Origin: Escherichia phage 121Q
DNA length: 64,000 bases
Reading direction: 5' to 3' (one strand)
Sequence record: NC_025447.1
The position numbers were made by a program, and so were the translations under genes. Positions 7,195-27,208 of the stretch are shown here, piece after piece; the first letter of the stretch is position 1; every line of letters starts with the position of its first letter. Below the pieces are notes generated by a model. The model was given only the letters and a program-made list of their open reading frames with translations. It ran no database searches and had not been told where the DNA came from.

Positions 7195-7289
7195 TTAAAC
7201 ACAAGTAGACAGGGGAAGCTCCTAGTGAACAACCTTTATGTACAGGCGAATTGTTAAAATTCAGCCTGGACAAATGCGATCACTAGGAT

Positions 7290-7400
7290 TCTCCCCAGGC
7301 TAAACCCCGTAATCATAGGTAGTCATAAGTAATCATATATAAACATTTAAGTAATCATTTATAATCACTGTAGTGATCAGTAGTGATCAGTAGTGAGTAC
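7290..7400. repeat. Cluster of short direct repeats (GTAATCA x4; AGTAGTGA x3)
   Basis: cgtaatcatagg...agtaatcatatat...agtaatcattta...gtagtgatcagtagtgatcagtagtgagtact. Confidence 0.6.
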
Positions 7401-7821
7401 TAGAGTACAGGAATGTTCACGTTTAATCAAGAACGTAGCAGTACTGATATGCCACTAAGTAGGCAGAGGAAGTCTGCCGTACTTTGTAGTTTCCAAGCTC
7501 CTTTTCCATTTTGCAAATTACATCAAATGTAATCAAAAGTAATCACGCAATGATTAGTACTGAATTATTACTTTCACCTTAATTTCAATTACCCCTTTAC
7601 CCTTCGGGGTAAAATTCAATTACCCCTTGAGGCTCCAGCAAAAAGTTGGTTAGTACTCCATCCTAAATCTCGATCCTAAAAATTTTGGAGTACCTATGAA
7701 ATAAAAGTTGGATCTTCGAAAGTTGAAATTTACGTTGGGACATATAGGATTTGTGGGATATAATGAGTTTTGTAGCGATACAGATTATACGATTTCAGTA
7801 CTGAATAATGAAAGAAAGCTA

Positions 7822-7849
7822 TTGACATTATGATTCAGTACTGTATAAT
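7822..7849 (+). promoter_or_regulatory. sigma70-like promoter with no obvious downstream ORF (possible non-coding transcript)
   Basis: TTGACA, 16-nt spacer containing CAGTACTG, TATAAT; no SD plus ORF of useful length follows. Confidence 0.4.
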
Positions 7850-8033
7850 GTTCTACATAGAGAGATGAGTTGCTGCGAACAATTCATTTACTCTACCTCC
7901 TGTCGTGAGACAGTACAGAAAAGATAGTTCCTCCTGTGGTGGTACATCTTTTTGAACCTCATATGAAAATCGTAATAACAGTACTGATATTAACAGAATG
8001 GTGTCAGTACTGATTTTAATCTAAAGCATTATG

Positions 8034-8053
8034 CCACCAGCTTGTGCTGGTGG
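8034..8053. repeat. Perfect hairpin carrying Chi in both orientations
   Basis: CCACCAGC-TTGT-GCTGGTGG. Confidence 0.6.
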
Positions 8054-8209
8054 ATTCCCTCTAACAGTATTCAGTACTACATGATAGTCTTCATCCTCCT
8101 ACAGTAACAGTGAGGGCTATTGTGGCAGTACTGAATACTCCCTTTCAAAAGATAGATCTATGGTATAGTACTGACGGATTTTGGGCGTAGTAACCCTAGG
8201 TTGAATTTA

Positions 8210-8355
8210 GACGTAGAGATGTCTAGACCTCCAGATGGCTGGAAGTAAAGATGGCTATCCCTCTAGGCGGCTGGATGGCTAGATTTCTAGATGGCTGTAC
8301 TGCTAGACGTTTGGACGGCTAAACGGCTAGATGGTTACACGTCTGGATGTATAGA
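8210..8355. repeat. Iteron-like array of short degenerate repeats (approx. CTRGAYGGCT), followed by an A/T-rich tract
   Basis: agatggct x4, gacggct x2, ggctag x3, tctaga/gtctagac palindromes within ~140 bp; then aaatcaaaatttttattttatttttt. Confidence 0.55.
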
Positions 8356-8520
8356 CGGCTAAATCAAAATTTTTATTTTATTTTTTCCAATAGTTCCCCT
8401 ACCGCGTGGGGATGGTTTCCCCGCAGTATCTGGAGTTAGATTTTTCTGAATCTGGAATCATTATCCCCGTTTTCGCCTGGTATGTCAACCGTCTGGATGA
8501 ATAATTTTAAAAAATAATCT

Positions 8521-8580
8521 AGTACTGAATTTTGGGCGTAACTATGCACCCGGTGGGCTAGAGTCTTTCTCGACTTGATA
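8521..8580. repeat. ~60-bp direct repeat, copy 1 (partner 8739-8800)
   Basis: agtactgaattttgggcgtaactatgcacccggtgggctagagtctttctcg versus tactgaattttgggcgtaattccgcaccccctggggtatccgctttctcg; both contain a degenerate inverted CCCAC-GGGTGC box. Confidence 0.5.
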
Positions 8581-8738
8581 AAAATATTATAGCAGTACTG
8601 AATTATAAAAGCAATAGCCTGGATGTAAAAAGTTTTAATTAATTTGCTTGTCATCCTGGGGCGTACTATGGTACTATGATTCAGTACTGAGAAAGTGCTA
8701 TGACCTGCTAAGGTGCGGGAGTGTATCCTTTTTAAATT

Positions 8739-8800
8739 TACTGAATTTTGGGCGTAATTCCGCACCCCCTGGGGTATCCGCTTTCTCGCGTCTATGTAGT
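8739..8800. repeat. ~60-bp direct repeat, copy 2
   Basis: See 8521-8580. Confidence 0.5.
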
Positions 8801-8893
8801 AATTATACGCTTTTTTAGTACTGAGTCAATAGCTAAAAACAAAATAATTGAAAATAATTTAACGCGTTTAAACGGCCCGTAAAGCCCTGGTTA

Positions 8894-8901
8894 GCTGGTG
8901 G
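8894..8901 (+). other. Chi octamer GCTGGTGG
   Basis: Exact match, intergenic. Confidence 0.6.
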
Positions 8902-9076
8902 CGGTGCAAATGTATAGCTTAGGTGTATTAATGCGTTAGAATGCGATTGAGGACGTTTTACGGGGTATAGTACTGATTCAGTACTGAATAGTAGTACTGA
9001 AAGATTGTTCTCCCTGGATTGTTCCAGTACTCCTATATAGAAAGAAAACTATTTTAAAAGTATTTGTAGAAAGTAC

Positions 9077-9104
9077 TTGCAAAGTATTGGGAAAGGTGTA
9101 GAAT
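9077..9104 (+). promoter_or_regulatory. early-type sigma70 promoter with leader hairpin
   Basis: aAAGTACTTGCAA, 16-nt spacer, TAGAAT; hairpin ACGGGGG..CTCCCGT at ~9118-9137. Confidence 0.55.
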
Positions 9105-9160
9105 GTTTTACATCGAGACGGGGGAAACGCTCCCGTTGCACTTTAAAAGAGATTAAAACG

Positions 9161-9523
9161 ATGGCGACTCAAATCAATACTATCATGCTTAACCTGGTTT
9201 CTTTCCGTGAAGAGATGAAAGATCTTCCCGCTGAGACTGTACGGATTCACATTGCAGCTTATCGGGAATTGATTGCAATGCTGCCGCTTAAGCGTGAACA
9301 GTATGCCGCTACTGCTATGCTCGATGCAATGATCCATAAGATGATCCAGACTGATTTAACGATGGCTTATCAGTACATGGGCGAAATGTTTGCAGTGTAT
9401 AGCAAGCCAGTACCAGGAATGGAAAGTACAGAAGTATTGCACGGCTTAAACTTAAAACAAGATGCATGGGATAATATGCCTCGTTTCCTGGTATGGGCTG
9501 ACAGTGGCAAGATTTACGAATAA
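9161..9523 (+). CDS. hypothetical protein (120 aa)
   Basis: Start trimmed from 9077 to ATG 9161 (MATQINTIM), downstream of promoter and hairpin. Confidence 0.6.
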   Translation: MATQINTIMLNLVSFREEMKDLPAETVRIHIAAYRELIAMLPLKREQYAATAMLDAMIHKMIQTDLTMAYQYMGEMFAVYSKPVPGMESTEVLHGLNLKQDAWDNMPRFLVWADSGKIYE

Positions 9524-9537
9524 GTTTAATAAAGTAC

Positions 9538-9565
9538 TTGCAAACTAAGTTTAAAAGCGTATAAT
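9538..9565 (+). promoter_or_regulatory. early-type promoter with leader hairpin
   Basis: TTGCAA, 16-nt spacer, TATAAT; hairpin GTGGGGAA..TTCCCCAC 9578-9596. Confidence 0.6.
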
Positions 9566-9617
9566 GTTTTATATCAGGTGGGGAATAGTTCCCCACTATA
9601 ATAAAGAGGATTTAAAA

Positions 9618-9857
9618 ATGGCTAAATCAAAAATGTTCTTAGGACACAAAAACAAAACTCATTGGAATGTTTCCTTATGGATTAATAATGACGAATCATT
9701 ATACCGGTTGGCCCAGGACTTTATTGCCGCTAACACTAATCGTAATGATGCGGCCCGTCATATGATGCTATTTTTAGAACAGACTGGACAAGATAAAACT
9801 CCAGACGGCTTTAAGTATAGCACTACTGCGATCCGTGCGGCGATGGTTGGAATGTAA
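9618..9857 (+). CDS. hypothetical protein (79 aa)
   Basis: ATG 9618 after SD AAAGAGGA; MAKSKMF... Confidence 0.65.
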   Translation: MAKSKMFLGHKNKTHWNVSLWINNDESLYRLAQDFIAANTNRNDAARHMMLFLEQTGQDKTPDGFKYSTTAIRAAMVGM

Positions 9858-9875
9858 GAGAATAGATTAAAAGTA

Positions 9876-9903
9876 CTATTGCACGGTGATAGTACTTTAT
9901 AAT
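9876..9903 (+). promoter_or_regulatory. promoter-like element (deletion variant of the 21921 promoter)
   Basis: aaagtactattgcacggtgatagtactttataat; -35 degenerate. Confidence 0.35.
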
Positions 9904-9940
9904 AAAGTTCTTTTTGTACAACAACGATAGGGGTAACAGC

Positions 9941-10207
9941 ATGACTATTACATATTTTGCAACGCGTGAACTTGCTCGGATTGCCGCACGCCAGGACGGG
10001 GCGACGTTTAAAGATATGGGCGTACAATCTGAACGTGGTAAACGTTGGGCCGTAGTAAAGCAAAGTACAGCCCGATCAATTCAGTACTGGCGAGCGGCTT
10101 TAAAGCGTCCTGATAGTGTATCGCGTCGCGTGGTAGAAATAAAGCACGACCGCAAGGGCAATCGCGTTACCGTGTACCGTACTAAAAAGATTGCAGTACT
10201 TGAATAA
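9941..10207 (+). CDS. hypothetical protein; paralog of 21998-22393
   Basis: MTITYFATRELARIAAR...HDRKGNRVTVY shared with 21998 protein (MITKFFATREQARIVAR...HDRKGNRVTVY); start trimmed to ATG 9941. Confidence 0.65.
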   Translation: MTITYFATRELARIAARQDGATFKDMGVQSERGKRWAVVKQSTARSIQYWRAALKRPDSVSRRVVEIKHDRKGNRVTVYRTKKIAVLE

Positions 10208-10214
10208 AAAGTAC

Positions 10215-10242
10215 TTGCAAACTATGTTTAATGGCGTATAAT
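10215..10242 (+). promoter_or_regulatory. early-type promoter with leader hairpin
   Basis: TTGCAA, 16-nt spacer, TATAAT; hairpin GCGGGAA-CAC-TTCCCGC 10257-10273. Confidence 0.6.
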
Positions 10243-10294
10243 GTTTTACATCGAGAGCGGGAACACTTCCCGCCTATAACCTGGAGTAATAAAA

Positions 10295-10525
10295 ATGACT
10301 AATATGTATATGACTGAAGTTAAAACCGTAAAAGATACTACCACGAATAAAACTACTTACTTACAGCGGATCTGCGGTGTATGGCAACGTATCAGCAAAT
10401 CAAAGTACTTTAAATTAACATCATATGCCAATCGTTCGGATTCATTCAGTACTGAAATAAAAGGTAATAAAGTACACCAATACGGCACTTATTATTATTA
10501 TAGCCTGGACGCGATTGCAGTATAA
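10295..10525 (+). CDS. hypothetical protein (76 aa)
   Basis: SD CTGGAGT; ATG 10295. Confidence 0.65.
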   Translation: MTNMYMTEVKTVKDTTTNKTTYLQRICGVWQRISKSKYFKLTSYANRSDSFSTEIKGNKVHQYGTYYYYSLDAIAV

Positions 10526-10555
10526 GTAGTTTACAAATCTTTACAATTGCCAGTA

Positions 10556-10584
10556 TTGACTTATTTTGTCAGTACTGGCATAAT
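10556..10584 (+). promoter_or_regulatory. promoter (rightward) of convergent pair flanking box element
   Basis: TTGACT, 17-nt spacer containing CAGTACTGG, CATAAT. Confidence 0.5.
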
Positions 10585-10607
10585 GTATCTATTGAAACGA
10601 ACAATTT

Positions 10608-10683
10608 GGCCCACGGGGTGCGGGAGTGTATCTATAGAAAAAGTAGTTTATTACAGTTACAATTGTGCACCCGGTGGGTTAGC
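10608..10683. repeat. Inverted pair of the 'CCCACNGGGTGC' box (candidate small structured RNA)
   Basis: ggcccacggggtgcgggagtgtatctatag ... tgtgcacccggtgggttagc: ~12-bp imperfect arms around a ~45-nt loop. Confidence 0.45.
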
Positions 10684-10699
10684 TGTTGTCATGGGGTAT

Positions 10700-10728
10700 A
10701 TTATGCCAGTACTTGATAATGCTGTCAA
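10700..10728 (-). promoter_or_regulatory. promoter (leftward) of convergent pair
   Basis: Minus strand reads TTGACA, 17-nt spacer, CATAAT (plus strand attatg...tgtcaa). Confidence 0.5.
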
Positions 10729-10775
10729 TACTTTTTTTTTACTATTCAGTACTGAAAACTATTTTTAAAAAGTAC

Positions 10776-10803
10776 TTGCAAACTATGTTTAAAGGCGTAT
10801 AAT
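10776..10803 (+). promoter_or_regulatory. early-type promoter (first of tandem pair)
   Basis: TTGCAA, 16-nt spacer, TATAAT; followed by conserved ~85-nt leader also present at 20777-20862. Confidence 0.55.
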
Positions 10804-10893
10804 GTTTTACATCAGGACGGGGAATGAAATAAGTAACTCCCTGTTAAGTAGTCCAGGAGTAAGACATACGAAAACCTCCCCTGATAAAATAGT

Positions 10894-10921
10894 TTGACAA
10901 AGATTTATAAAAGCGTATAAT
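10894..10921 (+). promoter_or_regulatory. early-type promoter (second of tandem pair)
   Basis: TTGACA, 16-nt spacer, TATAAT. Confidence 0.55.
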
Positions 10922-10953
10922 ACTTACATCAACTACTGAATGAGGGTTACAAA

Positions 10954-11565
10954 ATGAAAACTATCACTACTACTACTTTCGTTATGGCTTTTTCTGAACT
11001 GAACGCAGAACAACAAACGGCGGCTATCGAACTGGTTCGGGATCGGGAACGTGCAAGTGAGGATAATTTCTTTGCTGAGTCAGTACTGGAATACTATAAA
11101 GAAACAGTACTACCAGAATACGGCATAGATGAAGCTGAATTGCAATACAGTGGTTTTTGGTCGCAAGGTGACGGTGCATCAATCAGTACTGACCACGTTG
11201 ACGCTGAGAAGTTTTTACGCAAGGTTAAGGCGTTAACGAAATATCGTTCCATCCGTCACCTGTTGAACGAAGATGATTTGGAAATGAGTGTAGAACGTTC
11301 CCAATCGCGTTATGCACACGAAAACACGGTAGGCGGTTGCGTTGATACTCGCTACACTGATTTAACTGTAAAACAGGCGGCGTTAGCTGAGGAACTGGAA
11401 AATTTACTGACTGACACGATCCGAGAATTATCTTGTAAGCTGTACCGTGATTTAGAAAATGCTTATGAAGACCAGTTTACTACTGAAAACATTGTAGGAC
11501 TGATTGAGGGTAACGAATATCAATTTAATGTTATCGATGGTGTAGTAGAATCTATCGCATATTAA
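10954..11565 (+). CDS. hypothetical acidic protein (203 aa)
   Basis: SD GAGGGT; long ORF with even codon structure; acidic composition. Confidence 0.7.
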   Translation: MKTITTTTFVMAFSELNAEQQTAAIELVRDRERASEDNFFAESVLEYYKETVLPEYGIDEAELQYSGFWSQGDGASISTDHVDAEKFLRKVKALTKYRSIRHLLNEDDLEMSVERSQSRYAHENTVGGCVDTRYTDLTVKQAALAEELENLLTDTIRELSCKLYRDLENAYEDQFTTENIVGLIEGNEYQFNVIDGVVESIAY

Positions 11566-11623
11566 TTCAGTACTGAATCACTGGCGGGGAATGGTTCCCG
11601 CCTATATCCCAGGAGTAAGAGAA

Positions 11624-11860
11624 ATGATCGAACAAATCAAAACTACAACGCCAAACGTAACGGGTACAGTATCACACTTCATTGGTGACGATTCGCGGGG
11701 CGTTCCTTATTGTGCAGTACATGTAAACAAAAATGGCGACTACTGGCTAACGGTTTACGGTTCTTATTCTTTCGGGCGTAGTGCACACCAAAAGATCCTG
11801 GATAAAGTACAACCAACGGGTAAAAATATCACCGCTGAGATGTTTTATAAAAAGCACTAA
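11624..11860 (+). CDS. hypothetical protein (78 aa)
   Basis: Start trimmed to ATG 11624 after SD CCAGGAGTAAGAG; preceded by hairpin GGCGGGGAATGGTTCCCGCC. Confidence 0.6.
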   Translation: MIEQIKTTTPNVTGTVSHFIGDDSRGVPYCAVHVNKNGDYWLTVYGSYSFGRSAHQKILDKVQPTGKNITAEMFYKKH

Positions 11861-11867
11861 AAAGTAC

Positions 11868-11895
11868 TTGCAAAGTAATTAGATTAACGTATAAT
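11868..11895 (+). promoter_or_regulatory. early-type promoter with leader hairpin
   Basis: TTGCAA, 16-nt spacer, TATAAT; hairpin 11910-11926. Confidence 0.6.
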
Positions 11896-11945
11896 ACTTT
11901 ATATCGAGAGCGGGAATAGTTCCCGCCTTTACTGAGGATTATCTA

Positions 11946-12230
11946 ATGGGTAAAGTAATTAACTATACAGTACTAAGCAAGTCATTATCTATTAGCCAGT
12001 GCACCGATGGTTTTTGGCTGTACGATGAAACGCGTGGCATGAATTTAGCTATGCAGGAGAAAACTACTGATGCGGCATATCTTAAAGCACTGGAATACTA
12101 CCAGAAGCGTTTAAAGGAAGTAGAAAACGATTATAATAACCTGAAAGCGAAAGTAGATCATTTCGTCGGTCAATTCATTGACGATGACGAGGACGGGCAC
12201 TACTGCGACCGTTGCGGATCTTACAATTGA
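11946..12230 (+). CDS. hypothetical protein (94 aa)
   Basis: SD CTGAGGAT; ATG 11946. Confidence 0.65.
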   Translation: MGKVINYTVLSKSLSISQCTDGFWLYDETRGMNLAMQEKTTDAAYLKALEYYQKRLKEVENDYNNLKAKVDHFVGQFIDDDEDGHYCDRCGSYN

Positions 12231-12247
12231 GTACTGAGGATTATCTA

Positions 12248-12451
12248 ATGAGTGATTTAATTAAACGTATCAAAGAGCTTGAAGAAAAAGAATTGCAGTT
12301 GATCGGGTTACGGAATAAAGTATTCCATGATTTAGGTGGCTTCATTAATGCCTGGGATAGTGGCGATCCTGATGCGTTACCTGCTAACCGCCAGGCGATG
12401 ATCAATGATGTGCGTGGTGTCTTTGATTATGTTTTAAAGCAATTAAATTAA
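12248..12451 (+). CDS. hypothetical protein (67 aa)
   Basis: Start trimmed to ATG 12248; duplicated SD context actgaggattatctaatg as at 11946. Confidence 0.6.
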   Translation: MSDLIKRIKELEEKELQLIGLRNKVFHDLGGFINAWDSGDPDALPANRQAMINDVRGVFDYVLKQLN

Positions 12452-12459
12452 AAAAGTAC

Positions 12460-12487
12460 TTGCAATTAGTTTTCAGTACTGTATAAT
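12460..12487 (+). promoter_or_regulatory. early-type promoter with leader hairpin
   Basis: TTGCAA, 16-nt spacer (ttagttttcagtactg), TATAAT; hairpin ~12500-12518. Confidence 0.6.
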
Positions 12488-12537
12488 AGTTTACATCAAG
12501 GGGGAAATGGTTCTCCCCACTAATAAGGAGTTTTACA

Positions 12538-12759
12538 ATGGCTAATATCACTACTCTTTCCCAGCTTGAAGCACTGGTTAAATCTATGCGGGAACATGCC
12601 GACAATATCGGCGTAGAAGATCCGGCTGTATGTTTTTGCGACGAAATAAATGATGATACGCTCGTCATTGCAGAAGTACAAGACGTTTCTAACTATTCAT
12701 CGCGTTACACTGGCGGCGTAGCAAAGAAAGGTGATTTTTGTTTATATCTTACTAAGTAA
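12538..12759 (+). CDS. hypothetical protein (73 aa)
   Basis: SD TAAGGAG; MANITTL... Confidence 0.65.
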   Translation: MANITTLSQLEALVKSMREHADNIGVEDPAVCFCDEINDDTLVIAEVQDVSNYSSRYTGGVAKKGDFCLYLTK

Positions 12760-12766
12760 TAACCAG

Positions 12767-12792
12767 GGGGATCAAACGATCCCCTTTATTTT
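12767..12792 (+). terminator. Rho-independent terminator
   Basis: GGGGATC-AAAC-GATCCCC followed by TTTATTTT. Confidence 0.6.
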
Positions 12793-12818
12793 GCAGTACT
12801 GAATCATTTAATAGACGG

Positions 12819-12850
12819 ATCTATGCACCCTGTGGGTTAGTGACTATCTC
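12819..12850 (-). repeat. 'CCCACAGGGTGCA' box element, minus orientation, downstream of minus-strand promoter
   Basis: Plus strand atctatgcaccctgtgggttagtgactatctc is the reverse complement of the box seen at 16977. Confidence 0.5.
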
Positions 12851-12864
12851 GTCTTTATGTAGGT

Positions 12865-12893
12865 ATTATGCCAGTACTGGATGCAGTTGTCAA
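12865..12893 (-). promoter_or_regulatory. minus-strand promoter driving the box element
   Basis: Minus strand TTGACA, 17-nt spacer, CATAAT; transcript would end at the 12767-12792 hairpin. Confidence 0.5.
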
Positions 12894-12927
12894 GACTTTT
12901 TTTTCAAATACTTTTATATTAAAGTAC

Positions 12928-12955
12928 TTGATAATAGTTTTTAAACGCGTATAAT
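12928..12955 (+). promoter_or_regulatory. early-type promoter
   Basis: TTGATA, 16-nt spacer, TATAAT. Confidence 0.5.
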
Positions 12956-13005
12956 GTTTTACATCTAATCGGGAATACTCCCTAGTACTAACAAAGGATA
13001 TACAA

Positions 13006-21211: not shown

Positions 21212-21487
21212 ATGCGGATTCTACTGACAGCTAACGAAATCGAGCAAGTACTGACTACTAACCTGGAAGACTGGAAACGTGATGCAGATATCCAGGCGGT
21301 GCAATGGCTCAATGATAAGTTAACGCCGGATGATTTAAGTAAGATTGTAGATCCACAATTCTATGAAGATATTCACGACACGGCTTTAAGCGTCGAGGAT
21401 GTACTTGATAAGCACTACATTGATATTGATTTGCAGGTTTACGGTCGTAAAAACTTTATCACTATTCACGACATTTATAATAATTAA
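21212..21487 (+). CDS. hypothetical protein (91 aa)
   Basis: SD AAAGAGAGAAA; ATG 21212. Confidence 0.65.
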   Translation: MRILLTANEIEQVLTTNLEDWKRDADIQAVQWLNDKLTPDDLSKIVDPQFYEDIHDTALSVEDVLDKHYIDIDLQVYGRKNFITIHDIYNN

Positions 21488-21489
21488 GT

Positions 21490-21517
21490 ATTGACAAAGT
21501 ATCTTAGTACTGTATAA
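21490..21517 (+). promoter_or_regulatory. early-type promoter with leader hairpin
   Basis: TTGACA, 16-nt spacer, TATAAT; hairpin AGGGGAATGGTTCCCCT 21534-21550. Confidence 0.65.
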
Positions 21518-21574
21518 TAGTTTACATCAAGGCAGGGGAATGGTTCCCCTCCTAACTAAAAGAGAGAAATTAAA

Positions 21575-21898
21575 ATGACTATGATCCTTACCCAGAAAGT
21601 AGAAATGAAAATTGTAACTTCCTTTGACATTAAAGTCAATCGGTGGACTGATAGCCACGGCAATACTTACCACTCATGCTACGTGTCTGCATTGATTGGT
21701 GACCGCTGGGAAGACCTGGGACATGAAACCTTTACTTACGGTTACGGTACACAAGGCGAATACACGGGCTTGGAGATCATTAAAGAAACTGTAATAGGTT
21801 TCAACCCGAAAGAGAAAGTACTACACAGAATTGAGGATGAGATCAACAAAGAAATTACAGTTCGTTACTACGATGTAAAACGTAAGAAAGATATGTAA
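21575..21898 (+). CDS. hypothetical protein; paralog of 15365-15688
   Basis: Shared core NRWTDSHGNTYHSCYVS...FTYGY...VKRKKD. Confidence 0.7.
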   Translation: MTMILTQKVEMKIVTSFDIKVNRWTDSHGNTYHSCYVSALIGDRWEDLGHETFTYGYGTQGEYTGLEIIKETVIGFNPKEKVLHRIEDEINKEITVRYYDVKRKKDM

Positions 21899-21920
21899 TA
21901 GAATCCATTTAAAGTACTAT

Positions 21921-21949
21921 TTGACATTGCCCAGATAGTACTTTATAAT
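21921..21949 (+). promoter_or_regulatory. early-type promoter
   Basis: TTGACA, 17-nt spacer, TATAAT. Confidence 0.55.
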
Positions 21950-21997
21950 AGACTCTAACTTGTAGTACTAATTAACTTAACTAATAGGATGTACACC

Positions 21998-22393
21998 ATG
22001 ATTACTAAATTCTTCGCTACCCGTGAACAAGCTCGCATCGTTGCCCGTGAAGAAGGTGAAACATTTAAAGACATGGGCAAAGATGCACCGAAAGGACAAC
22101 GCTGGGCGGTACAGTTCAAAGAGATCTCTGATATTGTGAATTCACCTGAGCCTGTACTTACAGCAGCAGAACTAAAGCAAGCTCAAGAACTGGCTGAAGT
22201 ACTGAACGCTCAAGATGACTTTTTGAAAGGTTCTGATATTGAAGTTACAGTTAACGCAAATGCATGGACTCACGCGGATCACCTGGCAAACCTTAAGCGT
22301 CCAAGTGAACTGATTCGTAACCAGAAAGAGATCCGTCATGACCGTAAAGGAAACCGTGTAACAGTATACAGTAAACGCCGCCAGGTTATCTAA
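21998..22393 (+). CDS. hypothetical protein; paralog of 9941-10207
   Basis: Start set to second ATG (21998), which has SD AGGA 9 nt upstream; N- and C-terminal similarity to the 9941 protein. Confidence 0.65.
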   Translation: MITKFFATREQARIVAREEGETFKDMGKDAPKGQRWAVQFKEISDIVNSPEPVLTAAELKQAQELAEVLNAQDDFLKGSDIEVTVNANAWTHADHLANLKRPSELIRNQKEIRHDRKGNRVTVYSKRRQVI

Positions 22394-22416
22394 TAACTTT
22401 GCAGTACTAACAACAC

Positions 22417-22442
22417 GGCGGGAATATTTCCCGCCTTTTTTA
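22417..22442 (+). terminator. Rho-independent terminator
   Basis: GGCGGGAA-TAT-TTCCCGCC followed by TTTTTTAT. Confidence 0.7.
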
Positions 22443-22455
22443 TAGGATAAACAAA

Positions 22456-22710
22456 ATGATTAAGGTTCAACTATCAAACGATAATGTATTACGGGTACAC
22501 TATAAAGCTCCACAGAGAATCATCACAAAGGCCGTACAGCTTGCTAATGAGTTTATTAATGGTAGTCTATTGCCTAGGAAGTTAAGCAACGGGAAACTAC
22601 GTGTAATCGACGTAGACACTAACAATAGAATAGTGATCGAGAGTACTGGAAAAATTAATCTATATGAACACCAACAATACAATAAAAAAATAAAACTAAT
22701 ATCACGTTGA
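22456..22710 (+). CDS. hypothetical protein (84 aa)
   Basis: SD TAGGAT; ATG 22456. Confidence 0.6.
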   Translation: MIKVQLSNDNVLRVHYKAPQRIITKAVQLANEFINGSLLPRKLSNGKLRVIDVDTNNRIVIESTGKINLYEHQQYNKKIKLISR

Positions 22711-22735
22711 CAGTACTCAAATGTTTTAGTATTAT
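22707..22735 (+). promoter_or_regulatory. promoter (duplicated module, copy 1)
   Basis: TTGACA, 17-nt spacer (gtactcaaatgttttag), TATTAT; near-identical module at 22983. Confidence 0.55.
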
Positions 22736-22763
22736 GTATCTATACCAACACAGGAGAAACAAA

Positions 22764-22982
22764 ATGAAATTATCTAAAATCGAAAAGAAAACTATTGATG
22801 AAGCAGTGAAGCACGGTTATACCTTTCGTAATGATTCACACTTCACCAGTTTTCAACAGGGAAACCGTACCATCAAAAAACTCATTGATAAAGGTTTACT
22901 CACTAAGGTTGATAACGGGAACGGTGTAGAATATCAACCGACAGAAGACGCATTATCACTAAAGAAATATTCTATTATCTAA
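22764..22982 (+). CDS. hypothetical protein (72 aa)
   Basis: Start trimmed from 22707 (in the promoter) to ATG 22764 after SD CAGGAGAAACAAA. Confidence 0.6.
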   Translation: MKLSKIEKKTIDEAVKHGYTFRNDSHFTSFQQGNRTIKKLIDKGLLTKVDNGNGVEYQPTEDALSLKKYSII

Positions 22983-23011
22983 TTGACAGTACTCAAATGT
23001 TTTAGTACTAT
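22983..23011 (+). promoter_or_regulatory. promoter (duplicated module, copy 2)
   Basis: TTGACA, 17-nt spacer, TACTAT. Confidence 0.55.
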
Positions 23012-23039
23012 GTACGCATACCAACACGGGGAAAACAAA

Positions 23040-23282
23040 ATGATTACTTTAGAAAAACGTATCAAAGAGACTACAACGCTGGTGGAACTGTTAACCGTTC
23101 TTAAATGCCGGGTAACTCCATTCAGTACACCGGACTTTATCAACATGGTGGACGTTAACGGTCGCTATCGTATTGCGGTCGAACAAGGTACGGCAAAAGT
23201 ATTCAGTACTAAAAATACGCGTGAAGTATTCCACGCAGTTCAAGTAAAAAAAGTAGTTGCCATTGATAGTAAAGTACTGTAA
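23040..23282 (+). CDS. hypothetical protein (80 aa)
   Basis: Start trimmed to ATG 23040 after SD CGGGGAAAACAAA; shares promoter/leader but not protein sequence with 22764. Confidence 0.6.
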   Translation: MITLEKRIKETTTLVELLTVLKCRVTPFSTPDFINMVDVNGRYRIAVEQGTAKVFSTKNTREVFHAVQVKKVVAIDSKVL

Positions 23283-23313
23283 TATAGTTTCATTAACTCA
23301 AGGAGTCAACACA

Positions 23314-23898
23314 ATGCGTAACTATACTAAATTCATCCGTTCACTTCATGCAATGGAAACCAACAAAGAGATCCTTTCAGCTTGTCGGTTAGCTGGACTG
23401 GAGATCGTCGGTGCGGGTTCTTCCCGTATTGTATTCGCTTTAAATGATCGGTTAGTGATTAAGGTCGCGAATTGTGATGCGGGTGTAGAACAAAATGAAA
23501 CTGAATGTAAGGTATGGAATTTTTTAGATTATGACCGTCCGCACCTTAAACAGTTCTTTGCCAAGGTGCATATGCATTTATGCGATCCTGATAATCTGCT
23601 TATTGTTATGGATCGTTTGAGTACTGCAAGCAAAGGCAGTGTAAAGCACGTAACCGCATGTAATGAGTTAAAGTACAATATTAAACGTAACACTATTGAA
23701 CGCCATCACCATTTCGCTGATGCTCTCAATCACGTTGATGATACATTATCCACACTAACGATAAGAGATATCAGAAAACAGAATATCGGCCAGGATCGCA
23801 ACGGCTTGATTAAAGTACTTGATTACGGTTTAACCCGCAATATCTGGAATCAGTACTATAAAAAACGTGATGTTAACGCGATAACTATAACACGATAA
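23314..23898 (+). CDS. putative protein-kinase-like protein (194 aa)
   Basis: Motif order resembles a kinase core: Gly-rich loop GAGSSRIVF, lysine in LVIKVAN, catalytic-loop-like RDIRKQNIG, DFG-like DYG; start trimmed to ATG 23314 after SD CAAGGAGT. Confidence 0.4.
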   Translation: MRNYTKFIRSLHAMETNKEILSACRLAGLEIVGAGSSRIVFALNDRLVIKVANCDAGVEQNETECKVWNFLDYDRPHLKQFFAKVHMHLCDPDNLLIVMDRLSTASKGSVKHVTACNELKYNIKRNTIERHHHFADALNHVDDTLSTLTIRDIRKQNIGQDRNGLIKVLDYGLTRNIWNQYYKKRDVNAITITR

Positions 23899-23916
23899 AA
23901 AAGATTAAAAAAGGGA

Positions 23917-23945
23917 TTGACTCCAGTCAGTCCCTTTGCTATTAT
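23917..23945 (+). promoter_or_regulatory. promoter with embedded inverted repeat, driving box element
   Basis: TTGACT, 17-nt spacer, TATTAT. Confidence 0.5.
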
Positions 23946-23968
23946 ATATTCATTGAGAGATAACTCAC

Positions 23969-24000
23969 TGACCCATAGGGTGCGGAAGTGTATCTATTAT
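23969..24000 (+). repeat. 'CCCATAGGGTGCG' box element
   Basis: tgacccatagggtgcggaagtgtatctattat. Confidence 0.55.
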
Positions 24001-24039
24001 ATAAGTATTCAGTACTGAAAACTATTTTATAAAAAGTAC

Positions 24040-24067
24040 TTGCAAACTATCTCAATGAGCGTATAAT
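24040..24067 (+). promoter_or_regulatory. early-type promoter with leader hairpin
   Basis: TTGCAA, 16-nt spacer, TATAAT; hairpin ~24078-24098; the 23917-24067 cassette is near-identical to 16925-17085. Confidence 0.6.
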
Positions 24068-24122
24068 GTTTTATATCGAGAGGGGGAAATGGTTCTCCCT
24101 GGTACTAAAAGGAATCAAGACG

Positions 24123-24344
24123 ATGGCTACTATGACCTGCGTTCACGCTTCAAATCTTCTGAATGATGCAGCATTTAAAGCAGGTGAAGAATATCAATGC
24201 TATCGGGATGAAAATAAAAAAGTTTTCGTCGTTGATGCTAACGGTTTCCATATTGAATTGCAATCCGGTTTCACTGGCATTGATGGTAAATCTGTATGGG
24301 GCGTCCAGGACGATAACGGCACATATCATTTTAAACGTAATTAA
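24123..24344 (+). CDS. hypothetical protein (73 aa)
   Basis: Start trimmed to ATG 24123 after SD AAAAGGAAT. Confidence 0.6.
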   Translation: MATMTCVHASNLLNDAAFKAGEEYQCYRDENKKVFVVDANGFHIELQSGFTGIDGKSVWGVQDDNGTYHFKRN

Positions 24345-24345
24345 G

Positions 24346-24373
24346 TATTGACAAAGTATATCAGTACTGTATA
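24346..24373 (+). promoter_or_regulatory. early-type promoter with leader hairpin
   Basis: TTGACA, 16-nt spacer, TATAAT; hairpin 24387-24405. Confidence 0.65.
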
Positions 24374-24428
24374 ATAGTTTACATCAAGGGGAGAATAGTT
24401 CTCCCCACCAATAAAAGGAAACAAAATT

Positions 24429-24701
24429 ATGTCCAGCTACTCCGCTACTATGATTATTAAAGATATGAACGGTAATCCTACTTCTGCTGGTGGATCATTT
24501 GGTAACATTAATTTAGATGGGCGGTTATCAATTGAATCAGCCATCAATGCAGCGAAAGAAGTTTTTAAGAATGAATGTACTGTAAGCAAGCTGGATTATA
24601 TGGGCTTCGCTATCGAGAAAACTAATCGTTTTGTGGACTACAAAAAACCACTGATGATTGATACTAACCTGAAAGCAAACGAAGTGGAATACTTATTATG
24701 A
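24429..24701 (+). CDS. hypothetical protein (90 aa)
   Basis: SD AAAAGGAAA; ATG 24429. Confidence 0.65.
   Translation: MSSYSATMIIKDMNGNPTSAGGSFGNINLDGRLSIESAINAAKEVFKNECTVSKLDYMGFAIEKTNRFVDYKKPLMIDTNLKANEVEYLL
24485..24492 (+). other. Chi octamer GCTGGTGG (inside CDS)
   Basis: Exact match, codes SAGG. Confidence 0.55.
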
Positions 24702-24889
24702 CAGTAGAAGAAGTTAAAAAAGTACTGGCAGTACTACGCTATCATAATCATTGTAAGGTGAAGAATGATCCTGATTATCTTGATTCATCGCTGGAAGAGG
24801 ATACACTACAAGCAATAAGCCATATGCAAAAAATGCTTAAGCGTATGACCGAAAAGAACAGGCCGGACTATATCGGAAATAAAATTTAA
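24698..24889 (+). CDS. hypothetical protein (63 aa)
   Basis: ATGA coupling to upstream gene. Confidence 0.55.
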   Translation: MTVEEVKKVLAVLRYHNHCKVKNDPDYLDSSLEEDTLQAISHMQKMLKRMTEKNRPDYIGNKI

Positions 24890-24895
24890 AAAGTA

Positions 24896-24923
24896 CTTGC
24901 ATTGTAAGTAAAACAAAGTATAA
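24896..24923 (+). promoter_or_regulatory. early-type promoter with leader hairpin
   Basis: TTGCAT, 16-nt spacer, TATAAT; hairpin GGGGGAGATATCCTCCCCC 24934-24952. Confidence 0.6.
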
Positions 24924-24972
24924 TGTTTTACATAGGGGGAGATATCCTCCCCCACTAATAAGGAGTACTAAA

Positions 24973-25197
24973 ATGGCTAACTTTGATGAACTGATGCGGG
25001 AAGTAGCTACCCTGGCAGAAGAGAAGAAATCATTTGATTCTATCTATAACACCGCTTACAGTGATTCAGTACTGGCATGTACTCAGGATCAAAAAGATGA
25101 ACTGATCGCCACCTATCATGAAGCATGGAAGTATTACCGCCAATGGGAGAAAGAAGAAAGCGAGTCTACCATCAACGGCATCAATAATCTAATCTAA
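24973..25197 (+). CDS. hypothetical protein (74 aa)
   Basis: SD TAAGGAGT; MANFDELMREV. Confidence 0.65.
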   Translation: MANFDELMREVATLAEEKKSFDSIYNTAYSDSVLACTQDQKDELIATYHEAWKYYRQWEKEESESTINGINNLI

Positions 25198-25215
25198 AGT
25201 TTTATTTCAGTACTA

Positions 25216-25244
25216 TTGACAATGCGTGATAGTACTGATGTGAT
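25216..25244 (+). promoter_or_regulatory. promoter-like element (weak -10)
   Basis: TTGACA, ~17-nt spacer, TGTGAT. Confidence 0.35.
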
Positions 25245-25271
25245 AACTTTACTAACTAAAGGGGAAACATA

Positions 25272-25529
25272 ATGGAACAGTTCACACAATATCGGGTAAA
25301 TCCTCAAGCTATGGCCTACGTAGAAGACCATAAAACGTTACCAGTACTAACACCAATTAAAGGCCATATCTATCGTGCTATGCAGTGGAATAACGCCTAT
25401 AATGGCTATAAAGCGGTATCCGCTGCAATGTACTTAGGGGATGGCGAATGGTTTGATCCAAATAATCCTGGTGCACTCGATAGTACTGAAAAAATGACAT
25501 GGGCCGACTATATCGAAGATATCTCATAA
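25272..25529 (+). CDS. hypothetical protein (85 aa)
   Basis: SD AAAGGGGAAA; ATG 25272. Confidence 0.6.
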   Translation: MEQFTQYRVNPQAMAYVEDHKTLPVLTPIKGHIYRAMQWNNAYNGYKAVSAAMYLGDGEWFDPNNPGALDSTEKMTWADYIEDIS

Positions 25530-25536
25530 AAACTAT

Positions 25537-25564
25537 TTGACAGTACTACAAGATAATGTATAAT
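25537..25564 (+). promoter_or_regulatory. early-type promoter with leader hairpin
   Basis: TTGACA, 16-nt spacer, TATAAT; hairpin GCGGGGGAATAGTTCTCCCGC 25577-25597. Confidence 0.6.
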
Positions 25565-25617
25565 GTTTTACATAGAGCGGGGGAATAGTTCTCCCGCACC
25601 TTTAGGAGTAAAACATT

Positions 25618-25818
25618 ATGTCAATCGCTAACGAATTGGTTGCAGTACTGAATGAAGCAAAAGCCAACTGCATCGATGTACAGATCAAAGAGCTTGGCAA
25701 TGGCTTGATCGGCTGTACTTGTACAGTGCAAACGGCTACCGATTATCGGGAAGTGGAATCACTCGAATCACTGGTACGGTATATTAAAATCCTGGTAGAA
25801 GATTGGAGAATCATCTAA
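25618..25818 (+). CDS. hypothetical protein (66 aa)
   Basis: SD TTAGGAGT; ATG 25618. Confidence 0.65.
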   Translation: MSIANELVAVLNEAKANCIDVQIKELGNGLIGCTCTVQTATDYREVESLESLVRYIKILVEDWRII

Positions 25819-25840
25819 CAAAAAAGAATAAAAAAAGGGA

Positions 25841-25869
25841 TTGACTCCGGTCAGTCCCTTTGCTATTAT
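25841..25869 (+). promoter_or_regulatory. promoter with embedded inverted repeat, driving box element
   Basis: TTGACT, 17-nt spacer, TATTAT. Confidence 0.5.
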
Positions 25870-25887
25870 ATACGCATAGACAAAAAC

Positions 25888-25918
25888 TAGCCCACTGGGT
25901 GCAGAGAAGTATCTGTAA
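25888..25918 (+). repeat. 'CCCACTGGGTGCA' box element
   Basis: tagcccactgggtgcagagaagtatctgtaag. Confidence 0.5.
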
Positions 25919-25946
25919 GATAGTTAATAACGGTGAGTAACTATCT

Positions 25947-25954
25947 GCTGGTGG
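25947..25954 (+). other. Chi octamer GCTGGTGG
   Basis: Exact match, intergenic. Confidence 0.6.
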
Positions 25955-25991
25955 ATGTAATTCCAGTACTCAAAACTATTTCAAAAAAGTA

Positions 25992-26020
25992 TTGACAAAG
26001 TATAGCAGTACTGAGATAAT
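25992..26020 (+). promoter_or_regulatory. promoter-like element
   Basis: TTGACA, 16-nt spacer (aagtatagcagtactg), AGATAA/GATAAT. Confidence 0.45.
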
Positions 26021-26074
26021 GTATCTCGTAGGGCGGCAATAGTGCAGCCCACCTCCAAAAGAGCGAGATATAAA

Positions 26075-26290
26075 ATGGCGTTAACCAAACAAGAAATTAT
26101 CGACCGTATCAAAGAGTCAACTGGCTGGTATGTTGGGGACCGTTTAATTGTTAAAGTTCTCGATTATTCAAATAATCCTCTTGCACCGGAACCAGTGGCA
26201 TACAAATTATCCTGGATATCTGCGTTTAGCGGTAAGCGTGAAAGATGTGTGTACTATCCGAACACCGTCGGGCTACAGTTCTGTAAATAA
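26075..26290 (+). CDS. hypothetical protein (71 aa)
   Basis: Start trimmed to ATG 26075 after SD AAAAGAGCGAGA. Confidence 0.6.
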   Translation: MALTKQEIIDRIKESTGWYVGDRLIVKVLDYSNNPLAPEPVAYKLSWISAFSGKRERCVYYPNTVGLQFCK

Positions 26291-26308
26291 ATTTTAATAG
26301 AAAAAGTA

Positions 26309-26337
26309 TTGACAAAGTATATCAGTACTGCAATAAT
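26309..26337 (+). promoter_or_regulatory. promoter-like element
   Basis: TTGACA, 16-nt spacer, CAATAA; same architecture as 25992. Confidence 0.45.
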
Positions 26338-26390
26338 GTATCTCGTAGGGCGGCAATGGTGCGACGGCCCACAAAGTTAGGAGATTCAAA

Positions 26391-26717
26391 ATGAGTACTT
26401 CAATCGCTATCGTTAAAGCTTTCATCCGTACCAATTTCGACCGCATTACTGTTGATGGTAATGATCGGGAAGTAGAATACTCTTTCATTGTTGCACAAAC
26501 CGCAAACGGTGCACGCTATATCTTAAATGACAGTGAAGCTAACCACTACTTCTATAATAAAGGATTACACTACATCCCTAGCGAAGTAGTCTACACTAAG
26601 ATGAATAAGCTGGTAGACAAGATTAACGCTAAAGGTACTATCGATTTACAGTACTGGAGCGAAACCGAACCAGAATACGGATCACATCGTTACCTGAATC
26701 CAGGAATTAAAATGTAA
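26391..26717 (+). CDS. hypothetical protein (108 aa)
   Basis: SD TTAGGAGAT; ATG 26391. Confidence 0.65.
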   Translation: MSTSIAIVKAFIRTNFDRITVDGNDREVEYSFIVAQTANGARYILNDSEANHYFYNKGLHYIPSEVVYTKMNKLVDKINAKGTIDLQYWSETEPEYGSHRYLNPGIKM

Positions 26718-26724
26718 AAAGTAC

Positions 26725-26752
26725 TTGCATTGTACTTAGAATCAAGTATAAT
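26725..26752 (+). promoter_or_regulatory. early-type promoter with leader hairpin
   Basis: TTGCAT, 16-nt spacer, TATAAT; hairpin 26766-26786. Confidence 0.6.
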
Positions 26753-26806
26753 GTTTTACATAGAGAGGGGGAAATGGTTCTCCCTCCTAAATTAAGGAGT
26801 TTTATC

Positions 26807-27208
26807 ATGACCTTCTCAATCACTTCCTTCGCTGACGTTTTAGTACTGGCTCGGACTTTTGGTAAAGATGCACTGGAGTACGCTGTAAGTAATGGCACTC
26901 TCCAACCGGAACAATGCCGCATCATTGGAAACTGTAAACGTTGGGCGGTATCCAATACTATTGCACTAGAAAACTTCAACGATGGTAACAATGAGTATTC
27001 AGTTGATGCAGTATTCGAAGCCGTTGATCTTGGCGGTATCTATAACACTAACCTAAATGATGTGCGTATCGTTCGCACGGGGTTCGGTGCTTATGATGTA
27101 TCTATCCGTGAAGCTATGAACACCGGATACATTAGTAAGGACTTACTTGCTCACATCATGCAGCTATGGACGGAACGTAACGAAGCACGCACTATCTTAG
27201 GACTATAA
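26807..27208 (+). CDS. hypothetical protein (133 aa)
   Basis: Start trimmed to ATG 26807 after SD TTAAGGAGT. Confidence 0.65.
   Translation: MTFSITSFADVLVLARTFGKDALEYAVSNGTLQPEQCRIIGNCKRWAVSNTIALENFNDGNNEYSVDAVFEAVDLGGIYNTNLNDVRIVRTGFGAYDVSIREAMNTGYISKDLLAHIMQLWTERNEARTILGL

Follow-up and report, generated by a model that had tools for sequence, protein, structure and literature searches.

Why should a single six-letter palindrome, AGTACT, recur so often in the DNA of a large bacteriophage, in promoters, intergenic DNA and codons alike? The question is raised by a stretch of 64,000 nucleotides of Escherichia phage 121Q (NC_025447.1; the whole stretch is called the window below), for which an original prediction, made from the sequence, had proposed a strong over-representation of AGTACT between positions 7,200 and 27,000. 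In this work, we describe the excess of this word and its upkeep, then its arrangement at early promoters and its absence from two islands, and finally the proteins and processes that might read it. The window is 87-95% identical to the Asteriusvirus (Rak2-like) jumbo coliphages G17, Sharanji, phAPEC6, PBECO4 and CRJP21, and the complete genome of G17 (370,817 bp) is used for the main comparison. RaK2, GAP32, fHe-Yen9-04, RsoM2USA and PA5oct are represented by samples of 41-50 kb.

Selection keeps AGTACT dense

The window contains 265 copies of AGTACT, against 18.67 (standard deviation 3.74, maximum 29) in 100 shuffles that preserve dinucleotide composition, and AGTACT ranks first among all hexamers of the window. 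The proposed over-representation is thus borne out by an exact count against dinucleotide-preserving shuffles, the check that had been named for it. The range 7,200-27,000, which holds 135 copies, is indeed enriched, but the enrichment is not confined there: it extends over the rest of the window, except for the two islands described below, and over the full genomes of relatives. In the non-coding stretch at 7,200-9,080, where about 19 copies had been counted and fewer than one expected, we find 20 against 0.62 expected from composition. Every repeat family within this stretch is centred on CAGTACTGA.

The unit of this enrichment is the exact hexamer. A 12-bp palindrome, TTCAGTACTGAA, had also been said to recur, and it does so, with starts at 7794, 8977, 10445, 10745, 11566, 24008 and 47404; the positions originally given are off by at most a few bases. 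However, given the weak preference for particular flanks, the 12-mer is not the unit. C stands at -1 in 43% of the sites and G at +1 in 51%, and the bias is symmetrical though weak (C(-1)/G(+1), T(-3,-4)/A(+3,+4)), with at most 0.47 bit of information per flanking position. Intergenic sites are no richer in flank information than coding sites, which rules out a longer operator masked by coding constraint. In G17, variants with one mismatch occur at 1.1-2.3 times expectation, versus 9 times for exact AGTACT. An exact 6-bp palindrome that makes no demand on its flanks is a property shared with the sites of type II restriction enzymes.

The copies are not simply carried along by duplicated genes or promoters, since grouping the 265 sites by the context of their flanks (at least 70% identity over 40 nt) still leaves 227 clusters. 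Within the coding sequences (CDSs) of the window there are 163 copies, against 50.7±6.2 when synonymous codons are shuffled within each gene (3.2-fold) and 20.2±4.2 when the order of codons is shuffled (8-fold). The three reading frames contain 58, 38 and 67 of these copies, and Ser-Thr is written AGT-ACT in 58 cases. The suggestion of a codon preference is thereby confirmed, and so is that of a DNA-level constraint acting on codons and dipeptides; we found neither a genome-wide count at the expected frequency nor an absence of codon bias. A conserved peptide or an artefact of paralogy is ruled out by the use of three frames, the excess over synonymous shuffles and the 227 contexts. In comparison with G17, 88.7% of the AGTACT sites are intact, versus 76.8% of neighbouring control hexamers. 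Selection acts on the DNA rather than on the protein to keep AGTACT dense.

The same behaviour is seen in the complete genome of G17, whose full record contains 1,034 copies, or 902 after one copy of its terminal repeat is dropped, against about 100 expected (9-fold). In its terminal repeats the density reaches 6.3 per kb, against 1.2-2.4 per kb for genes of replication and structure, the late and structural genes being enriched 4-7-fold, and it climbs again near the genome's opposite end. Among the 64 palindromic hexamers, AGTACT is the only one clearly enriched in G17, the runner-up reaching 1.56 times expectation, and 22 of the 64 are wholly missing from 350 kb of this genome (for example, CCATGG, 0 against 47; TGGCCA, 0 against 43; GGTACC, 0 against 32). 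In the window, 26 palindromic hexamers stand at zero, with a summed expectation of 107. The purged palindromes mostly contain at least four G+C, and the sites of EcoRI, EcoRV and HindIII are not avoided.

AGTACT is also the top hexamer in the Klebsiella phage RaK2 (119 observed, 12 expected), the Yersinia phage fHe-Yen9-04 (82 observed, 11 expected) and the Cronobacter phage GAP32 (253 observed, 14 expected). No enrichment is found in RsoM2USA of Ralstonia (10 observed, 7.4 expected), PA5oct of Pseudomonas (4 observed, 13.4 expected) or XacN1 of Xanthomonas (0 observed, 7.7 expected). The enrichment is a clade-wide trait of the enterobacterial Rak2-like phages. A 50-kb sample of Escherichia coli K-12 contains 3 copies, so that AGTACT is 40-100 times denser in the phage DNA than in that sample of host DNA.

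About 90% of the copies are intragenic, the density being 4.6 per kb in intergenic versus 2.4 per kb in genic DNA, with peaks 0-40 nt past stop codons and 40-120 nt ahead of start codons. Outside the two islands no strand bias is observed (AGTAC, 1092 sense versus 1094 antisense). The coefficient of variation of the gaps between copies is 0.77-0.89 in four genome segments and the maximum gaps are below the Poisson expectation; that is, the copies are spaced more evenly than at random. In core genes, at 71% nucleotide identity between G17 and fHe-Yen9-04, 18 of 66 AGTACT sites are shared (27%, versus 17% for any hexamer), and the density is similar in the two phages despite this turnover of positions. 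Even spacing, together with turnover at a kept density, indicates a density or coverage motif, like Chi, DNA uptake sequences and HIP1, rather than a fixed regulatory set. The idea that AGTACT is a recombination joint for the shuffling of gene halves found no support, given the 227 unrelated contexts and the use of all frames.

Early promoters and motif-free islands

We scored the 43 σ70-like promoters of the terminal repeat in the window. In 15 of them AGTACT begins at -5, counted from the start of the -35 hexamer (AAAAGTAC/TTGCAA), and in 18 at +15 (AGTACTG/TATAAT, where it provides the TG of an extended -10 element). The word is therefore a frequent part of early promoters, 32 of the 43 having it in at least one of the two registers, but the original statement, by which almost all early promoters have two copies, goes too far: both sites are present in six, a single site in 26 and neither in 11. 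The same registers are used in GAP32, where AGTACT is found at -5/-6 in 17 of 47 promoters and at +15/+16 in 12 of 47. Neighbouring AGTACT sites show a spacing peak at 20-24 bp. No fixed AGTACT register is seen at late (TATAAATA) or middle-type (TGAAACG) motifs. The operator of a dimeric repressor is expected to be a palindrome that overlaps core promoter elements at a constant register, as AGTACT does, and the proposal that AGTACT is an operator fits the early promoters; alone, however, it leaves aside the roughly 90% of copies that are intragenic, their turnover and their even spacing.

Two other elements accompany these promoters. A leader, GTTTTACATC..., is conserved downstream of many of them (for example, at 12496-12530 and 19650-19685), and many of their 5' untranslated regions contain a G/C-rich hairpin, for example GGGGGAAATGGTTCTCCCC or GGGGAGAATAGTTCTCCCC.

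The two islands without AGTACT (Table 1) follow promoter-delimited units. In island 1, six of the eight GTAC tetramers belong to TGTACT, i.e., AGTACA on the antisense strand, and its counterpart in G17 has 11 antisense AGTACA and no AGTACT. Island 2 contains neither AGTACT nor TGTACT, and AGTACA at about 5 per kb. On the sense strand AGTACA occurs 41 times against 3.5 expected by composition (12-fold), in all three frames and in unrelated peptides; the corresponding comparison with synonymous shuffles gives 38 versus 12.8±2.9. In the gene arrays at 41384..64000, synonymous shuffles give 19.7±4.0 AGTACT against 72 observed and 19.4±3.9 AGTACA against 37 observed.

Island 2 is further distinguished by the complete lack of ACT on its sense strand. 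The gap of 7,511 bp is 147 times the mean spacing of ACT (51 bp), and the next-largest relative gap of any trinucleotide is 18 times. AGT occurs in the island at a normal frequency of 25 per kb. The Thr codons are ACA in 76 cases, ACC in 14, ACG in 12 and ACT in none; avoidance as a codon effect is ruled out, because ACT is missing in all frames and in the intergenic parts as well. The ACT-free block measures 7,649 bp in G17 (334815-342464), where it is the sole such stretch of the whole genome and no other gene is free of ACT, 7,632 bp in SP27 (L014 6444-14076) and 8,293 bp in fEgEco12 (L017 4488-12781), at about 75% nucleotide identity. Between the window and G17, none of the 389 substitutions in island 2 creates an ACT, whereas 18±4 were obtained by simulation (minimum 8 in 500). 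No ACT-free block is present in the 41-50 kb samples of RaK2, GAP32, fHe-Yen9-04, RsoM2USA and PA5oct.

The ACT-poor unit is headed by a σ70-like promoter, TTGACAGTACTTTTCATTACTGATATAGT, which is identical in the window, G17 and fEgEco12. In four phages, the only ACTs over about 8.1-8.8 kb 3' of this promoter belong to AGTACT, of which there are two or three copies, at offsets (+236, +488) that are conserved. The end of the unit lies past the last stop codon (41,069) and before the next gene. Its boundaries thus coincide with a predicted transcription unit, as would those of a transcript immune to an interferase. In phage UE-S1, the promoter is mutated (TTGACGGAGCT) in its AGTACT/-35, the AGTACT being lost, and 16 ACTs are present in the homologous block of about 6.4 kb, or about 21 when counted from the promoter. 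This load is close to that of neutral drift at the divergence of UE-S1, so that the constraint appears to be relaxed there. In phage A4, too, the ban may have decayed. A Pfam search with ten island proteins found no family.

What might read the word

AGTACT is symmetrical and neutral between strands, its promoter sites lie 5' of where transcription starts, and it peaks in the non-coding terminus, all of which argues for a two-fold-symmetric reader that recognises the word in double-stranded DNA. A coverage function is favoured by its density, its turnover and its even spacing, and the contrast with the host sample makes AGTACT a potential self-mark. We tentatively favour, as a possible reading but one to which we give less than an even chance, that AGTACT is a selected "self" tag on the duplex of enterobacterial Rak2-like phages, recognised by a two-fold-symmetric protein, which would gate early promoters as well. 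The reader would be a dimeric protein or enzyme, either encoded by the phage or specific to enterobacterial hosts. When bound at promoters, in a subset of which the sites are about two helical turns apart, it might block or modulate host RNA polymerase and thereby bring about early shut-off. The approximately 800 intragenic copies would provide density-dependent coverage that steers the reader to phage rather than host DNA, and islands 1 and 2, without the palindrome, may be transcription units that need to escape from it.

We conclude that two constraints are at work, the ACT ban being distinct from the selection for AGTACT and confined to a single strand of a single transcription unit. The total absence of ACT in all frames within promoter-set bounds resembles immunity to a trinucleotide-specific single-strand nuclease or binder. 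The most likely cause would be that the mRNA (or the non-template strand) is in this way made immune to a putative single-strand-specific nuclease or binder of ACU/ACT, and AGTACA would be the best stand-in for AGTACT that is still allowed under such a ban.

Several observations weigh against a self tag read by a promoter-gating protein. The specificity for the hexamer is unusually sharp for a transcription factor, and the flanks are nearly uninformative even in intergenic DNA, which is more like the site of an enzyme. The 4-7-fold enrichment of late and structural genes is not needed by a repressor that serves early shut-off only. A reader of the palindrome gives no reason why AGTACA should be enriched 12-fold in island 2 rather than absent, and neither the opposite polarity of the half-sites in islands 1 and 2 nor their divergence from the AGTACT-rich segment that lies between is accounted for. 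In addition, Pfam identified no helix-turn-helix or ribbon-helix-helix protein among 82 open reading frames (ORFs) of the early region, most of which have no family.

The sharp hexamer with weak flanks would indeed suit an enzyme: a methyltransferase, nickase or type II topoisomerase of the phage, with restriction-like specificity, may act at AGTACT. If the mark, nick or break that it leaves were of use in replication, late transcription, packaging or topology, a large number of even sites would be of advantage. A two-fold-symmetric 6-mer with a 4-bp GTAC core has the geometry of type II enzymes, the sites are evenly spaced and densest in the heavily transcribed terminal repeat, and G17 encodes candidates (an N6-adenine methyltransferase, a Dcm-like methyltransferase, a T4-like topoisomerase II and HNH nucleases). 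Methyltransferase targets, however, are normally not over-represented, and a methyltransferase alone gives no cause for a 9-fold enrichment. A restriction target of the ScaI type is expected to be avoided or neutral, whereas AGTACT is 9-14-fold enriched. The only methylation reported for RaK2 is in the CpG context (PMC3622015), and ten enzymes cut fEgEco12 DNA normally (PMC13070987), which speaks against global modification. The fixed promoter registers are also left unexplained by an enzyme site, which we consider rather unlikely, though a serious alternative. Alternatively, the word may be a start site of the T4-like gp61 primase of the clade, if this primase recognises 5'-ACT-3'; AGTACT would then template pppGUACU on both strands, and dense, even sites would aid lagging-strand synthesis either way. 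The T4 primase recognises 5'-GTT/GCT-3' with a cryptic 3' T, and by analogy with T4 the hexamer could be read as a cryptic T plus five templated nucleotides. Genes for a gp61-like primase and a gp41-like helicase are present in G17, along with homologues of gp23, gp20, gp17 and gp43. The genome-wide, density-based, evenly spaced and turning-over behaviour of AGTACT is consistent with priming; the WGTACT variants on one strand of the islands would be natural for a strand-specific priming signal, and island 2 has one strand wholly without ACT. On the other hand, the absence of any ACT over 7.5 kb goes far beyond the needs of priming, the ACT-poor unit begins at a promoter rather than at a replication landmark, and the registers at σ70 promoters are unexplained. 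We know of no report of over-represented primase sites for T4 or T7, and regard a primase start as quite unlikely.

The sense-strand nature of the ACT ban, which applies in all frames from the predicted transcription start, brings RNA into consideration. AGUACU could be the site of an endoribonuclease or an RNA-binding protein that times mRNA decay, comparable to GGAG for RegB of T4, and the transcripts of the islands would then be immune. Both islands are co-oriented and promoter-delimited, and each enriched genus has, among its early genes, one for a YafQ-like protein of the ParE/RelE fold. Nevertheless, the flanks are palindromic, there is no bias between sense and antisense outside the islands, AGTACT is densest in the non-coding terminus, the promoter sites lie upstream of the transcription start, late genes are enriched as well, and the half-site of island 1 is on the antisense strand. 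Moreover, the match to the YafQ-like fold is weak (TM<0.5), and UE-S1 has kept the toxin and lost the ACT ban. An RNA signal is therefore very unlikely in our estimation. That the enrichment is seen only in phages of Enterobacterales could reflect a DNA-binding protein specific to these hosts, such as SlmA, a nucleoid-associated protein or topoisomerase I, which binds AGTACT and which the phage exploits or titrates; this restriction is, however, confounded with phylogeny. The SlmA site GTGAGTACTCAC has an AGTACT core, but SlmA strongly needs G1 and T2 and requires a purine at position 3 (PMC3020112), whereas the phage sites prefer C at position 3 and have no GT at positions 1-2; the full SlmA site, GT[AG]AG[CT][AG]CT[CT]AC, occurs 0 times in the window and 0 times in 350 kb of G17. 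As for topoisomerase I, both strands of CAGT/ACTG offer a C at -4 together with a TA step for cleavage, like the motif of the E. coli enzyme, EcTopoI, yet this motif, with its strict C(-4), T/A step and asymmetric, AT-rich TCNTT/A (PMC9352719), fits only in part, because C(-4) is found at 45-49% of the sites and the invariant G2/C5 are not determinants for the enzyme. We give a host factor very little credence. Even less probable, and hardly credible to us, is a mutational or repair drive, in which a process like very-short-patch repair or biased gene conversion makes AGTACT without benefit to the phage. Very-short-patch repair enriches CCWGG in E. coli, and the turnover at a kept density and the presence of a Dcm-like methyltransferase would be in keeping with such a process. 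No neighbour differing by one letter is depleted, however (AGTATT 1.08 times expectation, AATACT 1.45 times, most others at least 1.1), AGTACT is conserved above its flanks, and stereotyped promoter registers and sharply bounded motif-free units are hard to obtain by a genome-wide drive.

The YafQ-like gene encodes an 84-amino-acid protein of the ParE/RelE superfamily, and a homologue from Klebsiella phage Muenster/K64-1 has been deposited as a "YafQ-like ribonuclease toxin". An AlphaFold2 (AF2) model with a pLDDT of 88.9 has YoeB, YafQ, ParE and HigB as top Foldseek matches, all weak (TM 0.38-0.47), and a PDB sequence search gave no match. The gene is found in all enterobacterial Rak2-like genera, and its matches include no Pseudomonas or Ralstonia phage record; two Xanthomonas phage records do match, although AGTACT is not enriched in the sampled XacN1. 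We recognised no obvious partner antitoxin. This protein, the sole candidate of the nuclease-toxin type found in the early region, is also the only one found for a nuclease behind the ACT ban, and its putative tie to the motifs is weak. Loss of the toxin as the reason for the relaxed ACT ban of UE-S1 is ruled out, because the toxin is intact there at 94% identity.

G17 also contains a tRNA-Thr(UGU) and an unusual tRNA-Ser with the anticodon ACU (A34) (L002 27934-28007 and 29693-29784). Their codons, ACA and AGU, are those that AGT-ACT and AGT-ACA load, which suggests that the translation apparatus of the phage is co-adapted to AGTACT. A broader proposal, which we consider unlikely, is that T4-related jumbo phages without hydroxymethylcytosine (hmC) use sequence words, in place of modified bases, to distinguish self from host and to schedule expression. 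In this view, about 900 copies of AGTACT would tag the duplex for a symmetric phage protein, one early operon would escape a single-strand-specific ACU/ACT nuclease because it is composed without that trinucleotide, with AGTACA in the place of the tag, and the two tRNAs would have co-evolved with the ensuing load of AGU and ACA codons.

Terminal repeat, neighbouring features and known systems

G17 has direct terminal repeats of 20,668 bp, and those of its relative fEgEco12, about 21 kb long, have been confirmed experimentally (PMC13070987). The window is oriented opposite to G17, and the terminal repeat corresponds to its positions ~7.46-27.5 kb. The last 40 nt of G17, i.e., its right physical terminus, match the window at ~7,458 on the minus strand, so that the 1.9-kb non-coding stretch spans the terminal-repeat boundary. 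Judging from these matches, the window appears to come from an assembly in which the terminal repeat is collapsed. The AGTACT-rich DNA at the beginning of the window comprises RCC1-like genes, a small-gene array, the terminal non-coding stretch and the early genes of the terminal repeat. The features are listed in Table 1.

Table 1. Features of the 64-kb window that bear on AGTACT and the ACT-free unit
Feature	Position	Strand	Description
AGTACT-rich DNA	1..27507	.	171 of 265 window sites; 3-8 per kb vs ~0.3 per kb expected
Non-coding stretch	7200..9080	.	Densest AGTACT of the window (20 sites, 10.6 per kb); terminal-repeat boundary inside
Terminal-repeat early region	9080..27507	+	~42 small genes, the majority with an individual σ70-type promoter
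Promoter with both AGTACT sites	12455..12495	+	AAAAAagtacTTGCAATTAGTTTTCagtactGTATAAT; centres 20 bp apart
YafQ-like toxin-fold gene (ParE/RelE superfamily)	22456..22710	+	84 amino acids; Pfam PF24732, 3e-10
Island 1	27508..31568	+	~17 small overlapping paralogous genes; 0 AGTACT, 0 sense-strand AGTAC
Strong promoter-like site	31269-31297		Just 5' of the inter-island segment
Segment between islands	31569..33805	+	AGTACT-rich, 16 sites
Promoter heading the ACT-poor unit	33145..33173	+	σ70-like TTGACAGTACTTTTCATTACTGATATAGT; AGTACT overlapping -35
Island 2, ACT-free block	33806..41313	+	~20 genes; 0 sense-strand ACT over 7,511 bp
Arrays of paralogous genes	41384..64000	+	Genes of 100-200 amino acids; 79 AGTACT; sense-strand AGTACA enriched too

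Small paralogous genes are tightly packed in long arrays at 3358-7194, 27706-33958 and 41221-64000. Two PHROG families match nine and eight of the 82 scanned ORFs, and neither has a known function. Two RCC1-like beta-propeller genes on the minus strand (890-3291) are members of an array that has 12 paralogues in G17. The early region also contains a GNAT acetyltransferase (19253-19606) and a DksA/TraR-type zinc finger, which is probably the 85-amino-acid ORF at 18932-19186, assigned through its correspondence with G17_00026. No Rfam family and no tRNA gene was found in the 64-kb window.

The terminal repeat contains nine co-oriented Chi sites (GCTGGTGG) on the plus strand (8046, 8894, 14155, 18321, 19782, 20700, 23078, 24486 and 25947), against an estimated expectation of about 0.05. 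In this orientation, they are active toward RecBCD coming in at the outer end of the repeat. A lone minus-strand Chi at 8034 forms, with that at 8046, a hairpin (CCACCAGC-TTGT-GCTGGTGG) about 0.6 kb from the other physical terminus, which is annotated as a terminator in G17. At 8218-8337, some ten GATGGCT(A/G) octamers with 8/16/24-bp spacing make up an iteron-like array, located in the terminal repeat about 0.8 kb inward of the physical end; this array could be a packaging or replication recognition element.

Our literature search found no paper linking AGTACT to jumbo phages, and papers on RaK2, CBB, PA5oct, Sharanji and fEgEco12 mention neither the AGTACT motif nor the unit without ACT. Some 900 selected copies of a hexamer, a trait kept in at least four phage genera, point to a sequence-specific factor on which the biology of a large set of jumbo phages centres, in a clade that includes phages studied for therapy against E. 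coli, Klebsiella and Salmonella. The reader, once found, would reveal how, in T4 relatives without hmC, phage DNA is recognised as self and the early genes are turned off. The ACT-free operon of about 8 kb is among the strictest word-avoidance signals known to us. It predicts an undescribed trinucleotide-specific single-strand nuclease or binder and marks about 20 genes without assigned function as genes that the phage shields. In practice, the density of AGTACT (the ScaI/Eco255I site) is a simple diagnostic of the clade, and the rules of the motif are relevant to the recoding or engineering of these genomes.

Among known systems, the ACT-free unit resembles mRNAs that escape interferases. MazF cleaves at ACA and MqsR at GCU, and mRNAs without those words are immune. 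Like ACA-less or GCU-less mRNAs, island 2 lacks one trinucleotide on the sense strand and has its complement at normal frequency; unlike them, it is a natural multi-gene unit of about 8 kb, conserved through about 25% divergence. To our knowledge, no ACT/ACU-specific nuclease has been characterised, and no counterpart of an ACT-free operon at such a scale has been described.

AGTACT itself has partial counterparts among operators. The SlmA site GTGAGTACTCAC is a dimer-read palindrome with the same central AGTACT, although the phage sites are without its outer G1, T2 and R3 and are not SlmA sites. OR1/OR2 of lambda and LexA boxes are likewise palindromes at the edges of the -35 and -10 elements, paired at about two helical turns in some promoters, but the core of AGTACT is 6 bp with little flank information, and about 90% of its copies are far from promoters. 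With Chi and the DNA uptake sequences it shares many copies, the importance of number and spacing, a contrast between self and foreign DNA and weak selection per site; those sequences are asymmetric and polar, whereas AGTACT is palindromic.

A further comparison is that with HIP1 (GCGATCGC) of cyanobacteria. Both are short, exact palindromes that are over-represented many-fold genome-wide, in coding and non-coding DNA, that are upheld by codon choice and whose density is kept while positions turn over; for AGTACT, the genome-wide excess, the upkeep through codons and dipeptides in all frames and the turnover at constant density were all observed. HIP1 is, however, a property of host genomes, whereas AGTACT is specific to the phage, with 3 copies per 50 kb in the host sample, and unlike HIP1 it stands in a genome purged of palindromes, at fixed registers of early promoters and with polar half-site variants in two units. 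If the word serves as a self-mark, a functional analogy, and only that, may be drawn with the hydroxymethylcytosine of T4, which marks self for host shut-off and the selective action of nucleases, the mark here being a sequence word. AGTACT is a new, phage-borne variant of the highly iterated palindromes and density motifs.

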